DNA of 64,000 bases from the NCBI GenBank assembly GCA_963834535.1, contig CAWICC010000005.1, positions 263,743 through 327,742 of the forward strand. Direction: 5' to 3'. Below the pieces are notes generated by a model. The model did not search any database, was not told the DNA's origin, and was given only the letters and a program-made list of their open reading frames with translations. Shown in pieces: positions 42,036 to 46,924 of this stretch. The DNA comes from an uncultured delta proteobacterium (lineage in GTDB: Bacteria > Desulfobacterota > Binatia > Binatales > Binataceae). Each line of letters begins with the position of its first letter. Within the stretch, counting starts at the first letter, position 1. A program made the translations under genes and the position numbers.

Positions 42036-42671
42036 ATGGCTGCAAAAGCGTACACCTCATCGACGGGATCGTCGGCCACCAAGCCGCACGCAATTATCGC
42101 GTTGGCATGCTTCGTCATCTTCGGTTGGGCGGCCCTGATCGGCAGCGCAAGGGCGCAGGTGCCGGTGGCCTCCAATGACACCTCAATCGGTGCCGAGTCA
42201 GGAATCAATGCCAGCGGGTCTATTTCGATCAATCAGGTCGCCGGCGTCGGCAATCAGCAGACCAATGCGTCTTTGATGACGAATTTTCCCGGACAGATGG
42301 AAATCAACCAGGCCTCGCTAGGCAATTTCCTTACAGACTCCGATAGGGGCAGCGCGACGATCGGGGCCTCGGCCTTTTCGGCTTCTTCCGGCTTAGTCCA
42401 GGTTTCGCAAACCAGTGGCGCGGGCAACATCGCGGCCAACGCCGCATTCGTTGGAGTCAGCGCTACCGGGGATGCGCTTACGGCGATCTCGCTGTCGCAG
42501 CTTCGTGGCGGGTTTGTGCCGGTTGATCCGAATTCGCCTCAACAGTACGCCGGGCACTATGCGATTGCACCGTCGGCGTTTTCAGGTACCACAGGGCTCG
42601 TCCAGGTGCAGCAAACGGTGGGTACTAACAATGTCGCCGCCAACACGATGTCGGTGCACATGCAGCCTTGA
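42036..42671 (+). CDS. FapB-like functional-amyloid repeat protein (three imperfect repeats)
   Basis: The Sec signal ends in '...ALIGSARA-QV'. The three repeats are:
- R1 'SGSISINQVAGVGNQQTN' (nt about 42201-42275)
- R2 'SGLVQVSQTSGAGNIAAN' (about 42363-42455)
- R3 'TGLVQVQQTVGTNNVAAN' (about 42567-42656)
They resemble the Pseudomonas FapB/FapC repeat 'SGNIGVNVAAGAGNQQSN'. Confidence 0.75.
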   Translation: MAAKAYTSSTGSSATKPHAIIALACFVIFGWAALIGSARAQVPVASNDTSIGAESGINASGSISINQVAGVGNQQTNASLMTNFPGQMEINQASLGNFLTDSDRGSATIGASAFSASSGLVQVSQTSGAGNIAANAAFVGVSATGDALTAISLSQLRGGFVPVDPNSPQQYAGHYAIAPSAFSGTTGLVQVQQTVGTNNVAANTMSVHMQP

Positions 42672-42856
42672 ATTTCGCGTTAGTCAGCATCATTATGCAT
42701 GACTGATTATGGAGGGGGCCCGTACGAGCATGATCTGCTCAGAATTTCAAAAGGAGGCGCCTATGTGAAATCTCAAATAGAATTTCGAGCGGGGAAAGTT
42801 AATAACGGACGGGAAACTGAACTCACAGAACGGATTGGATCTTGGAGGAGGATCGT

Positions 42857-43783
42857 ATGAAGTTTTTTAAGGCAACTGCAATGGCTCTGGTAGTCGGCGC
42901 CGGCTTGGCGCTCGTTACCACCCAGGCGGCTCGCGCGCAGGAGACGGCGGAGTCTTCGTCAACCTACACCTCGAGCATCAGCGGCAACAGCGAGAGCATC
43001 ACGCTCGGCGCTGGCCTCAGCGACACGCAGGTCGTTGCGACGTCAACCTCTGGCACGGCGATCGCGGCTGCAATCGCGACCCCGTTGTTCGCCGCCAGTG
43101 GCGGTGGCAGCTTGGCCGGCGGACATCTGTCCTTCGGCGGCACTGGCCCGCAGACGCAGGCCTCGTCCGCACCGGTTTTGGGCAACTGCGGCGTTTTTGG
43201 CTGCACCCCTAATATCCCGGCTTCCTACGGCAGCGTGCTCAATGGCGGTTCTTTCCATGGCAGCGCCAGTATCGATAATGGTCACAGCGATACCTTTGCG
43301 CTGAACCACATCGCTCTCTGGATCGATGCGAGCGCGGAGTCCACGCAGGGTTCGGCGACCACCAGCGGCACGACCTCGACCGGCATTTCGGTTGCGGGTC
43401 TGTTTGTCTTCGGACAGACGATTGCCGTTCCGACGAGCGGATCGCTGACTGATACGGAACCTGTCGCCCCTGGCGTTTATATCTCCAGCGGTGACTTCAA
43501 CAGTGATAGCGGCGCTATCGCGTTGAACCAGGTAGCCGGCGTCGGCAACCAGCAGGGCAACAACCTGTCAACTCTCGCCGAAGTACAGGGATCGAACTCG
43601 GTTAACGTCGAAGGCAGCCAGACCCTGGCGGATTCGGGCGTGATCGGCGACAGCTATACCACCGGCGGCGACACCGCGAACATTCAGCCTAACGCGTTCC
43701 AGAGCGTGAGCGGCTCGCTCGCGGTCAACCAGGCTGCAGGCATTGCCAACCAGCAGGCTAACAACGTGACCCTAGCTCACTAA
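42857..43783 (+). CDS. FapC-like functional-amyloid subunit with a Ser/Thr/Gly-rich N-region and two canonical C-terminal repeats
   Basis: GGAGGAGG lies before ATG 42857 and the signal peptide ends in '...TTQAARA-QE'. The repeats are 'FNSDSGAIALNQVAGVGNQQGNN' (about 43481-43579) and 'FQSVSGSLAVNQAAGIANQQANN' (about 43682-43780). A degenerate third copy 'SGNSESITLGAGLSDTQ' lies near the N-terminus. Confidence 0.75.
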   Translation: MKFFKATAMALVVGAGLALVTTQAARAQETAESSSTYTSSISGNSESITLGAGLSDTQVVATSTSGTAIAAAIATPLFAASGGGSLAGGHLSFGGTGPQTQASSAPVLGNCGVFGCTPNIPASYGSVLNGGSFHGSASIDNGHSDTFALNHIALWIDASAESTQGSATTSGTTSTGISVAGLFVFGQTIAVPTSGSLTDTEPVAPGVYISSGDFNSDSGAIALNQVAGVGNQQGNNLSTLAEVQGSNSVNVEGSQTLADSGVIGDSYTTGGDTANIQPNAFQSVSGSLAVNQAAGIANQQANNVTLAH

Positions 43784-43800
43784 GCTATAGTCATCCCTTC

Positions 43801-43841
43801 CGGACTGGGGACCTGGCACGAAATGGCGGGTCCCCAGTCCG
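43801..43841 (+). terminator. Intra-operon hairpin immediately after the FapC-like gene (candidate attenuator or RNA-stability element)
   Basis: CGGACTGGGGACC-(15 nt)-GGTCCCCAGTCCG is a 13-bp perfect stem. It starts 18 nt after the stop codon and has no U-tract. Confidence 0.5.
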
Positions 43842-44662: not shown

Positions 44663-44681
44663 ACGGGGAGGCAGCATCAGA

Positions 44682-45494
44682 ATGAAAATGAATAATTGCT
44701 CGACCCGCTTCGTCCAACGGCGTGCGATGTCAAAGATAACAACAATATTGGCGGCGTCGGTCCTATTGGCGGGTCCCGGACTAAGTACGGCGATAGCTGC
44801 ATCGGCCGCCGATAGTGATTTGCATTACTTAGGTCTGGACCAATCGACGGCGCAAGCGATCGGCGACGAAGAGATGGGACAGATGCGCGGCCGCTTCGTC
44901 CCAGCCGGTGGTGGCTCGCAGATCCTTTACTTTGGCCTGGTGATGGAAAGCAACTTGAGTCAGAACGGCAACGCGCTTTCGGCCGGCCTGGCTTTCGGCG
45001 TGGACTTCAAGTCGGGGTCGCCGAATGTCGTCACTGACTTGACCTGGACTACGCAGAGCGGGGCCGCATCGGATGCGACGCCGTTCGCCGGTCCCACTGG
45101 CAACCCGCTCGGCGGCATCGGCGGTGGAATCGGCCAGGTAATTCAGATCGCGGGTTCCGATAATCAAGCGAACAATCAGGCCAGTATCGATGTCACGCAC
45201 GGCACTCCGGGCGATCTCCTGCCCAATGGAGTGCCTACTGGTGGTCCGTGCGGAGGTTCGTGCGAAGCCACCATCCAGTCCAATGCCCTTAAGGTCTCAG
45301 TCAGTATGCCGGGGGCGGGAAGCGCAGGTCAGACCATTGGACCATCGGTGATCTTGCAAGGCATCCAGCTAAATGGTGACATGGCGCAGGCGAGCAACTC
45401 GATGAGTATGATCGTTCAGATGTCGCAAGCCAGCGGTATCAATCCGCAGGGCATATCGACAATTCTGAACACCTTACCGACGTTGCCTCGATGA
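44682..45494 (+). CDS. FapE-like secreted protein
   Basis: It has a signal peptide ('...LSTAIAASAADS') and one degenerate repeat, 'GGIGQVIQIAGSDNQANNQ'. Its position between the C39 peptidase and the OM barrel matches that of fapE. Confidence 0.6.
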   Translation: MKMNNCSTRFVQRRAMSKITTILAASVLLAGPGLSTAIAASAADSDLHYLGLDQSTAQAIGDEEMGQMRGRFVPAGGGSQILYFGLVMESNLSQNGNALSAGLAFGVDFKSGSPNVVTDLTWTTQSGAASDATPFAGPTGNPLGGIGGGIGQVIQIAGSDNQANNQASIDVTHGTPGDLLPNGVPTGGPCGGSCEATIQSNALKVSVSMPGAGSAGQTIGPSVILQGIQLNGDMAQASNSMSMIVQMSQASGINPQGISTILNTLPTLPR

Positions 45495-45592
45495 CATCCA
45501 TGAAGCCGGGGGAGCATCCGCATCGTTGATCCAGGGGCTAACGATGCGGATGCTGCGGCTGGCGGGCTCGGCAGGTACTTGGAGAGCGCCTA

Positions 45593-46924
45593 ATGCTCAA
45601 ATCGTCGATCGGCAAGAAGTTCCCGGTGTTGGGATTGGCAGCGGTTGTGGCAGTTGTGGGAGTGCCCGGGTTGTCGCAGTCGCAGACTGCGCCGCCACCG
45701 AACACGGCTCAGTTGGAACAGAAGAGCCAGATGCTGGAGCGGGCGCTTACTGACGAAGAGCAACGGTTGCTCAGACTGCAGTCCGAATATCAGGAGCTGC
45801 AGATTCAGATCAAAGCTATCGGTGGTAATCCCGGACCGACGGCCAACACTCTTGGACAACCTGGTCAGGCGCAGGCGCAGACCGTACAAGGCGGTCAGAA
45901 CACGACCGGCACCGGAACGTCGGTGACATCGGTGCAGGCTTCAAGCGGATCGCGCAAAACTCCGGGACGGAGCATCGCGGTCGAAGCGGCCTATCAACAG
46001 CAGAATGCTCTTTTCAGGCCGGGACTGACGTTCTTTCCGCAGTTTCAGTATTCGTACACCAATTCGCGGAACCTGGTACTCAATGGGTTCCTCGCTTTCG
46101 ACGCGATCCTGCTGGGGAATATCAATGTCTCGCGGATCGAAACCAACGTCTTCCAATGGAATCCGCAGGTCTATTACGCCTTCAATCGCCATTTCGAACT
46201 TAACGTAAATTTCCCGTATTTCTTCGAACAATCGACCTTCAAGGAAATTGGGGCCAGTACTTCGACCGCCAAGGAATCGCAAGCCACCGTCAGTAAGTGG
46301 GGGCTGGGCGATATCAGCGGCGGATTTTACTGGCAGGTCGCGGATCAGCACGATTGGTGGCCTAGTCTCATCTGGAACGTGCAGGCCTCGGCGCCCACTG
46401 GGACCAGTCCTTACGGCATCAAGCTGCTCAAGGATCCGACCAACAACAACCTGCAGTTCCCGGACAATCTGCCAACTGGAAAGGGCGTATGGGGCATCTC
46501 GTCGGGACTCTCGGTAATCCGCCAATTGGATCCGGTCGTGCTGTTCGGTAGTGGCAATTTCTACTATGAGTTCACCCAGAACGTTAAGGACATCAGCGCG
46601 GTGCAGGGGACGGTCACATCTGGAGAGGTAGCTCCAGGCAATGCCATTAGCTACACGCTAGGTGCAAGTCTCGCGCTCAATGAACGTTTCAGCACGCTGG
46701 TGGAAATCCAGGACATCATTACGAACTCGACCGAGATAAAACCGAATAAAGGGAACTGGACCACTATTCCGGATAGTGATAGCAACGCGGCTCAGTTCAT
46801 CTTTGGCGCGACCTACGCGGCGTCGCGCAATCTGTTTCCCTTCCTTCAGGCTGGGATAGGGGCAACACAGTACGCACCGAACTTTCAGATCAGCCTCTGG
46901 GTACCCTATTATTTTTCATTCTGA
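45593..46924 (+). CDS. FapF-like outer-membrane beta-barrel with an N-terminal coiled coil
   Basis: A signal peptide is followed by the heptad segment 'AQLEQKSQMLERALTDEEQRLLRLQSEYQELQIQIKAI' and a Gln/Thr/Gly linker. Alternating beta-strand patterns then run to the end at '...ISLWVPYYFSF', a C-terminal aromatic OMP signature. Confidence 0.75.
   Translation: MLKSSIGKKFPVLGLAAVVAVVGVPGLSQSQTAPPPNTAQLEQKSQMLERALTDEEQRLLRLQSEYQELQIQIKAIGGNPGPTANTLGQPGQAQAQTVQGGQNTTGTGTSVTSVQASSGSRKTPGRSIAVEAAYQQQNALFRPGLTFFPQFQYSYTNSRNLVLNGFLAFDAILLGNINVSRIETNVFQWNPQVYYAFNRHFELNVNFPYFFEQSTFKEIGASTSTAKESQATVSKWGLGDISGGFYWQVADQHDWWPSLIWNVQASAPTGTSPYGIKLLKDPTNNNLQFPDNLPTGKGVWGISSGLSVIRQLDPVVLFGSGNFYYEFTQNVKDISAVQGTVTSGEVAPGNAISYTLGASLALNERFSTLVEIQDIITNSTEIKPNKGNWTTIPDSDSNAAQFIFGATYAASRNLFPFLQAGIGATQYAPNFQISLWVPYYFSF

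Follow-up and report, generated by a model that had tools for sequence, protein, structure and literature searches.

The locus described here raises the question of whether an uncultured soil or peat bacterium of the family Binataceae, which is assigned to the candidate phylum Binatota, encodes a complete functional-amyloid (Fap) system, and in what respects such a system would depart from that of Pseudomonas, where the roles of the Fap proteins have been described (PMC5557850, PMC6173800). The DNA analysed, referred to below as the window, is a 64-kb stretch of contig CAWICC010000005.1, and the gene cluster in question occupies its positions 42036-46924. A preliminary description, made from the letters of the sequence, had read this cluster as five co-directional genes for a divergent Fap secretion and assembly machine. 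The five genes are present on the plus strand at these positions, and six such open reading frames (ORFs) span 42036-50582 if a giant gene downstream is included; the GC content of the cluster is 55-59%, and most of the window lies at about 60-63%. From the homology, gene order, repeat content, catalytic residues, purifying selection and clade-wide conservation established here, we conclude that 42036-46924 is very probably a fapBCDEF-type functional-amyloid operon in a Binataceae chromosome, the formation of amyloid itself being a prediction.

The assignment was made by NCBIfam and Pfam profile scans, which covered eight proteins. All five cluster proteins matched the corresponding NCBIfam Fap models, and the matches followed the operon in the order FapB, FapB/FapC, FapD, FapE and FapF, i.e. 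the canonical B-C-D-E-F. The first gene (42036..42671, +) encodes a FapB-like amyloid subunit of 211 amino acids (aa), aligned over positions 13-189 of the 190 in the FapB model (E = 3.1e-18). The second (42857..43783, +) encodes a 308-aa subunit, FapC-like by position, with matches to both FapB (5.7e-9) and FapC (1.3e-4). It is followed by the gene for a FapD-like C39 cysteine peptidase (43919..44662, +; 279 aa if the ORF is taken from 43823; FapD 1.2e-63, Pfam Peptidase_C39 5.4e-22), by that for a 270-aa FapE-like secreted protein (44682..45494, +; 2.6e-15, with aa 59-249 on positions 28-224 of the 247 in the model) and by that for a 443-aa FapF-like outer-membrane amyloid transporter (45593..46924, +; 2.6e-85, over positions 5-420 of 420). 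Profile comparison with the Pseudomonas families, which had been proposed as a check on the Fap interpretation, therefore supports it for every gene of the cluster. In Pfam, the C39 domain of the peptidase and the DUF7948 and SBBP families of the giant protein were the only matches in the cluster; as the Pfam copy used was without the recent FapBC family, and left P. putida FapB itself unmatched, the empty result for the subunits is uninformative. A precomputed Pfam match to PF27129 (FapBC) is on record for the FapC-like protein. When compared by BLASTP with the complete fapABCDEF locus of P. putida, the FapD-like protein was 42% identical to its counterpart (4e-59), the FapF-like protein 34% over its full length (7.5e-80), the FapB-like protein 32% (6.7e-9) and the FapE-like protein 30% (1.4e-5); the FapC-like protein gave repeat-level matches only.

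Repeats in the subunits were searched for with a hidden Markov model (HMM) of 30 columns, built from 14 units of non-window proteins only, namely P. putida FapB and FapC and the products of an unrelated metagenomic fap locus. In the FapB-like protein, three imperfect repeats (aa 58-78, 112-139 and 180-207) scored 15-21 bits, the best of 300 shuffled sequences reaching 6.7, and when all 674 six-frame segments of the window were scanned, significance was reached only by the 211-aa and 308-aa proteins (E = 4.6e-11 and 1e-6). The three copies first noticed in the 211-aa protein were thus recovered with an external model, but the literal GNQQ of the motif as originally written occurs in repeat 1 only, copies 2 and 3 having the form G-x-GN-x-AAN. 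The protein has a signal peptide, with predicted cleavage after ARA, and is collinear with P. putida FapB across the three repeats, the G, N, Q and A positions being invariant.

The ORF of the FapC-like protein opens at a TTG codon (42842), its 308 residues being counted from the ATG at 42857. Its signal peptide is followed by a clade-specific region of about 190 aa rich in S, T, G and A, and this architecture, with the N-region and a nearly invariant C-terminal His, is common to all 38 homologues. Two canonical repeats, at aa 217-237 (10.4 bits) and aa 279-306 (18.2 bits), exceeded all 300 shuffles, and hhalign placed aa 194-304 onto FapB repeats 1-2 (probability 97%, E = 5.5e-11). The numbers of repeats, three in the FapB-like and two in the FapC-like protein, were identical in four orthologues, so that the repeat motif is kept beyond the window. 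A third, degenerate repeat had also been proposed for the 308-aa protein; unlike the two clear copies, it was detected neither by the external HMM, nor by an HMM of the clade's own repeats, nor by hhalign to the FapB alignment. The long N-region had been described together with a CGVFGC pair, and the two fared differently: the former is present in the 38 homologues, but the latter was found in the window and in one related locus (L007; loci compared with the window carry L numbers), i.e. in two of five lineages, and is missing in L002, L008 and L009. Mid-protein Cys pairs do occur in some FapC-like proteins, namely those of the window and L007 and the L003 paralogues. A separate observation concerns the C-terminal His (43781-43783), which is nearly invariant in the 38 FapC-like proteins and is the last residue, too, of many FapB- and FapE-like proteins from non-Pseudomonas clades (L003, L005, L007, L002 and L008); the P. 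putida subunits end otherwise.

The peptidase was described at the outset as a C39 enzyme without an ABC part, and the Pfam scan (5e-22) agrees: the C39 domain occupies aa 91-224 of 279, and no ABC or permease domain was matched. The catalytic residues are Cys101 and His185 (numbering of the ORF from 43823), and their contexts, TDFSCGAAALA and GY(E/K)HFVVM, are identical to those of P. putida. Translation is likelier to start at 43919 than at 43823, because a hairpin at 43801-43841 overlaps the mechanical ORF start. A PROSITE-type lipobox (ALSS-C in the window, with Cys56 as its cysteine in the numbering just given) was found in the window and in L007, L002 and L008, hence in four lineages out of five, and is missing in L009 as well as in P. 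putida and L003. The lipidation claimed for this peptidase is consequently backed by a lipobox that is widespread in the clade, though not shared with P. putida or L003, and the protein is probably a lipoprotein, by prediction.

The FapE-like protein aligns collinearly with its P. putida counterpart, and R69 and G70 do not vary. These two residues belong to an N-terminal motif, (D/E)x(E/L)(L/M)xx(L/M/I)RG(R/K)(F/Y), at aa 60-73 (44860-44900), the RG of which is invariant across Binataceae, L003/L005 and P. putida; as it resembles a double-glycine leader, it could be a candidate site of cleavage by FapD. A Cys pair, PCGGSC (45240-45260), is retained as PCxxxC or CxxC in Binataceae and in L003/L005, not in P. 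putida FapE. The single degenerate repeat reported in this protein corresponds to an N/Q-rich, repeat-like stretch at aa 157-170, which is marginal: it scored 7.3 bits with the external HMM, against a shuffle maximum of 6.4, and 4.3 bits with the clade HMM.

In the FapF-like protein we found the elements that had been listed for it, namely a signal peptide, a heptad coiled coil, a Q/T/G-rich linker and a beta-barrel ending in YYFSF (an aromatic C-terminal signal), and in addition a plug region and the conserved motif LPTGxGVW. The coiled coil lies at about aa 40-76, and in a heptad region at aa 48-82, 80% of the a and d positions are hydrophobic, as against 8% of the other positions. The prediction of an outer-membrane barrel is strengthened by a match of aa 129-441 to the FapF crystal structures 5o65 and 5o68 (E = 1.4e-62).

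All named close relatives of the locus are metagenome-assembled genomes (MAGs) of Candidatus Binataceae, with FapF 57-89% identical to that of the window; an intermediate environmental group (L003, L005) is at 40-42%, and Pseudomonas FapF at about 33%. Ratios of nonsynonymous to synonymous substitution rates (dN/dS) of 0.06-0.26 indicate purifying selection on all genes, including those neighbouring the cluster (FapB-like 0.12-0.16, FapF-like 0.06-0.08, lactonase-like 0.17-0.26, giant 0.13), the values being approximate because dS is about 1.

The gene fapA is absent from the 64-kb window, as had been stated in the preliminary description. The NCBIfam FapA model, which recognised P. putida FapA at 1.7e-59 as a positive control, gave nothing at E<=10 for a 155-aa protein encoded upstream of the cluster or for the upstream intergenic ORFs, and tblastn of P. 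putida FapA against the whole window had a best E of 0.17. The 155-aa protein, which was considered as a FapA homologue, was rejected for want of any sequence similarity to P. putida FapA and of a match to the FapA model. The observation is correct, yet the variant is already known: absence of fapA is the commonest deviation from the full operon, recorded in six of 16 genera (Dueholm et al. 2013, PMC3792158), and fapA is dispensable in Pseudomonas. Much the same applies to the non-pseudomonad host, which is real as a departure but not novel. Fap systems are known from Beta-, Gamma- and Deltaproteobacteria (Dueholm et al. 2013, PMC3792158); complete systems were later traced in some 40 genera of proteobacteria, five additional phyla having fapD and fapF colocalised (Rouse et al. 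2018, PMC6173800); and of the 1602 clusters counted in a 2025 review that screened GTDB v226, over 90% were fapABCDEF or fapBCDEF, the hosts of Fap operons extending to Desulfobacterota, Nitrospirota and Bacillota (PMC12822426). We found no literature joining Binatota and amyloid, and Binatota is unnamed among the Fap hosts in the surveys compared.

Several results weigh against an amyloid operon. All five proteins score far under the NCBIfam equivalog cut-offs (66 against 190 bits, 214 against 330, 56 against 250 and 287 against 700), so that they are distant, family-level relatives, and to assign them the same function is to extrapolate. In the FapC-like protein there are two repeats, whereas three are near-universal. 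Single-sequence searches of the PDB with both subunits returned FapC matches that were non-significant (E 0.09-3), and an AlphaFold2 model of the FapC-like protein, computed from the 38-sequence alignment, had a mean predicted local distance difference test (pLDDT) value of 46, is unusable and lends no support to a stacked cross-beta fold; a Foldseek search with this low-confidence model (best E 0.7; FapC structure 9nqd at rank 29) is meaningless. As to the number of repeats, three are 'almost invariably' present in FapC (PMC12822426) and are near-universal rather than defining, exceptions with 2, 4 and 4-16 repeats being on record. The two-repeat FapC with its large non-repeat N-region, and the structure model in which no confident stacked fold was seen, would also suit a homologous machinery with a non-amyloid product, in which FapD and FapF export repeat-bearing soluble or non-fibrillar adhesins, possibly including the giant beta-propeller protein; colocalised fapD and fapF without the full Fap set do exist in other phyla (PMC6173800). 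We regard this as improbable, since the three repeats of FapB and those of FapC keep the G, N, Q and A positions that do not vary among Pseudomonas and environmental homologues, FapE is encoded as well, and a FapC one repeat short has a precedent in Desulfohalobium, which is counted among Fap systems.

A silent or decaying operon remnant is more improbable still. Remnants of fap have been reported in some genomes, e.g. that of Acidithiobacillus ferrivorans, and fapA is missing here; however, that gene can be dispensed with in Pseudomonas, no ORF of the locus is disrupted, signal peptides and catalytic residues being kept, the low dN/dS values extend to every gene, and the intact gene set recurs in many lineages together with the promoter-like modules described below. 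We give the least credence of all to a different C39-dependent system, either a Fil-type putative pilus or a bacteriocin-type export of leader peptides. The cluster proteins do have NCBIfam matches to pilus_FilB (1.6e-31), pilus_FilC (1.7e-12) and the peptidase domains of bacteriocin ABC exporters (1e-12), but these are weaker by far than the matches of the same proteins to FapD (1.2e-63) and FapF (2.6e-85); the peptidase, moreover, stands without ABC or permease domains, and homologues of FapB, FapC and FapE, all present here, are not known from those systems.

On the preferred reading of the cluster as a Fap operon, secretion, processing, lipidation and amyloid formation would follow the Pseudomonas paradigm. 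All products, each of which has an N-terminal signal sequence, would be exported by Sec, and the FapB-like protein with three repeats, the FapC-like protein with two repeats and its 190-aa N-region, and the FapE-like protein would be kept unfolded in the periplasm. FapD, probably tethered to the membrane as a lipoprotein, would carry out a processing step needed for secretion, for which the invariant RG of the leader-like motif in FapE is a candidate site. FapF, with its barrel, plug helix and periplasmic coiled coil, would then move the subunits through the outer membrane, outside which FapB may nucleate, and FapC polymerise into, cross-beta fibres built from stacked N/Q/G/A-rich repeats, the N-region of FapC being displayed on the fibre surface.

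Possible regulatory elements were found at three places of the locus. Upstream of the fapB-like gene there are two tandem modules (41805..41969, +) of the form TTGACA-N18-TTAATAGA(C/G)CGTGC, 127 bp apart, with the TTGACA boxes at 41805-41810 and 41932-41937 and 20-nucleotide direct repeats at 41823-41842 and 41950-41969; the second module ends about 65 nucleotides 5' of the start codon. The window contains the 20-nucleotide repeat twice, 100 shuffled versions being without it, and both modules with both TTGACA boxes are kept in L007 (~6250-6425), L012 (~6270-6430) and L013, hence in four lineages with that of the window. They may represent tandem promoters or paired sites for a regulator, as judged from their sequence. 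A riboswitch or other known RNA upstream of fapB was also considered and was discarded, the leader having no Rfam match at E<=1. The GC-rich hairpin directly 3' of the FapC-like gene (43801..43841, +; RNA fold z -3.3) has arms of 18 nucleotides and no U-tract, and none of 200 shuffles was as stable. Hairpins of differing sequence stand in the same place in L012, L013, L002 and L008, not in L007 (five of six lineages), which suggests a candidate attenuator or an mRNA-stabilising stem-loop after the subunit genes. A further hairpin, with a 16-bp stem and again no U-tract, separates the FapE-like and FapF-like genes (45513..45554, +; RNA fold z -2.6; 2/200 shuffles as stable).

The cluster is the core of a longer conserved block, in which the genes of a lactonase-like lipoprotein and then of the small secreted protein come first, separated by about 0.4-0.6 kb from fapB-C-D-E-F, and the giant DUF7948/SBBP gene comes last. 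This order is the same in every related locus with enough flank (L002, L007, L008, L009, L012, L013, L014-16 and L017), and the gene set is kept in at least eight related loci. The outer flanks, encoding a Rieske oxygenase, an amidohydrolase, a 359-aa protein and AmpG, are common to the closest subset only; identities are 82-94% for the flank genes and 53-89% for the genes of the block. Conserved adjacency is the basis on which a functional tie of the three neighbours to Fap may be hypothesised.

The first neighbour (39745..40926, +) is a lactonase-like seven-bladed beta-propeller lipoprotein (Pfam PF10282 Lactonase, 6e-27), with a lipobox, xGC-GH, kept in the window and four orthologues. All related loci have it at this position, and it corresponds to no known Fap component. 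The mechanical ORF of 743 aa at this place (38695-40926, +) is an over-extension running antisense through the amidohydrolase gene, the real start being near 39745. The second neighbour (41011..41478, +), which adjoins fap in all related loci, encodes the 155-aa protein mentioned above, and consists of a signal peptide, a P/S/A-rich segment modelled with low confidence, and a beta-sandwich domain of about 85 aa with two conserved Cys. It had no Pfam or NCBIfam match at E<=10. The AlphaFold2 model is all-beta, with pLDDT 70-90 for aa 55-139, and in Foldseek it gave generic beta-sandwich matches only (best E 2e-3), CsgC and CsgH not being among them. The family is small, with 16 representatives among 1.84 billion proteins.

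The third neighbour is the giant gene (46968..50582, +), which starts 43 bp past fapF and encodes an exported protein of 1204 aa with DUF7948 (2.3e-57), SBBP beta-propeller repeats (4.3e-23), a BNR/sortilin-like region and a C-terminal Ig-like (ASH) domain. The extra giant gene of the preliminary description is therefore present, and it is kept in every related locus with enough flank, lying directly 3' of fapF in L001, L002, L007, L008, L009, L012, L013, L014, L016, L017 and L018; the fap loci at greater distance, L003, L005 and L010, are without it. Any link to Fap would be an inference from its position. In L002, another DUF7948/SBBP paralogue (495-3662, -) is encoded upstream of the block and shares 29% identity with the giant protein of the window, so that the family has expanded in Binataceae. 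Convergent with the giant gene is that of the 359-aa secreted protein (50916-51995, -), with a weak ice-binding-like (beta-helix) match, and between the two lies a terminator-like hairpin with a 13-bp perfect palindrome (50843-50873). Elsewhere in the window, a low-GC island at 34301-36028 (+; 51% against ~60%) contains the gene of a secreted protein, Cys-rich and 575 aa long, that was not matched in Pfam.

It is a tentative idea, and one that we think more doubtful than not, that Fap in Binataceae is part of an eight-gene surface module, with at least one of the extra genes acting with the fibres. The 155-aa beta-sandwich protein could be a FapA-like periplasmic factor against aggregation, by analogy with CsgC/CsgH for curli, which is pure speculation, and for the DUF7948/SBBP multi-propeller protein a role as cargo or adhesin, either associated with the fibres or dependent on FapF, is conceivable. 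If this is true, Fap would have here a subtype of its own, defined by a FapD tethered to a membrane and by a FapC that combines two repeats with a large domain for display.

The findings place a complete Fap system in the uncultured and globally distributed Binatota, and leave the general picture of Fap biology unchanged. According to recent structural work, a stack of three repeats is almost universal and has a stabilising effect, a view that a natural two-repeat FapC with a large non-repeat domain could serve to test, and a lipid-anchored FapD could shed light on the place of action and the substrate of FapD in Pseudomonas. New partners of the amyloid may be sought among the co-conserved neighbours.

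Among known systems, the peptidase-containing ABC transporters of bacteriocins differ from the window in having permease and ATPase domains fused to the C39 part. Curli (csgBAC/csgDEFG) is a functional analogue, in that a nucleator and a major subunit with imperfect N/Q-rich repeats are exported by Sec, have a dedicated outer-membrane channel and polymerise outside the cell in a nucleation-dependent manner; there is no sequence relationship, however, the barrel of the window being of FapF and not CsgG type and a C39 peptidase being required, and no Csg families were reported by Pfam or NCBIfam for the eight proteins scanned. The closest relatives outside Binataceae are L003 and L005/L006 (MAGs GCA_964602255.1 and GCA_964610375.1), with FapF at 40-42% and FapD at 42-43% identity, and with fap operons spanning 1133-8923 in L003 and 611-7245 in L005. 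They resemble the window in the absence of fapA, the C-terminal His of the subunits, the Cys pair of FapE and the mid-protein Cys pair in some FapC-like paralogues, whereas they differ from it in having three to four FapBC paralogues (with five repeats in some of them), a divergent upstream response regulator of the LuxR type and an ordinary FapD signal peptide, and in lacking the lactonase-like, small and giant neighbours. A 155-aa gene located downstream in L003 is unrelated.

The order of the fapA-less fapBCDEF operons of Desulfohalobium, Aeromonas, Shewanella, Vibrio and Acidithiobacillus (PMC3792158, PMC12822426) is the same as that of the window, and Desulfohalobium likewise has a FapC one repeat short; the Binatota host, the N-region of FapC, the FapD lipobox and the three conserved neighbours set the window apart from them. 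With fapABCDEF of Pseudomonas (UK4, PAO1 and P. putida; FapF structures 5o65, 5o67 and 5o68, FapC fibrils 9nqd and 9u4u) it shares the same five essential components in the same order, a three-repeat FapB, a stand-alone exported C39 FapD with the same catalytic motifs, the N-terminal RG(R/K)F motif of FapE, and a FapF with coiled coil, linker and a barrel bearing the PTG motif. It differs in being without fapA, in the FapD lipobox, the FapE Cys pair and the three extra conserved neighbour genes, in a FapC with two repeats and a 190-aa N-region, as against three repeats with long linkers in Pseudomonas, and in a FapF longer by two residues at its end (YYF-SF), at identities of 30-42%. The original identification of the cluster was accordingly correct and the novelty of the fapA loss and of a non-pseudomonad host overstated: what is modestly new is the host phylum, the clade-wide two-repeat FapC with its 190-aa N-region, the lipobox of FapD and the three co-conserved neighbours, which together make this locus a clade-specific variant extending a known system.

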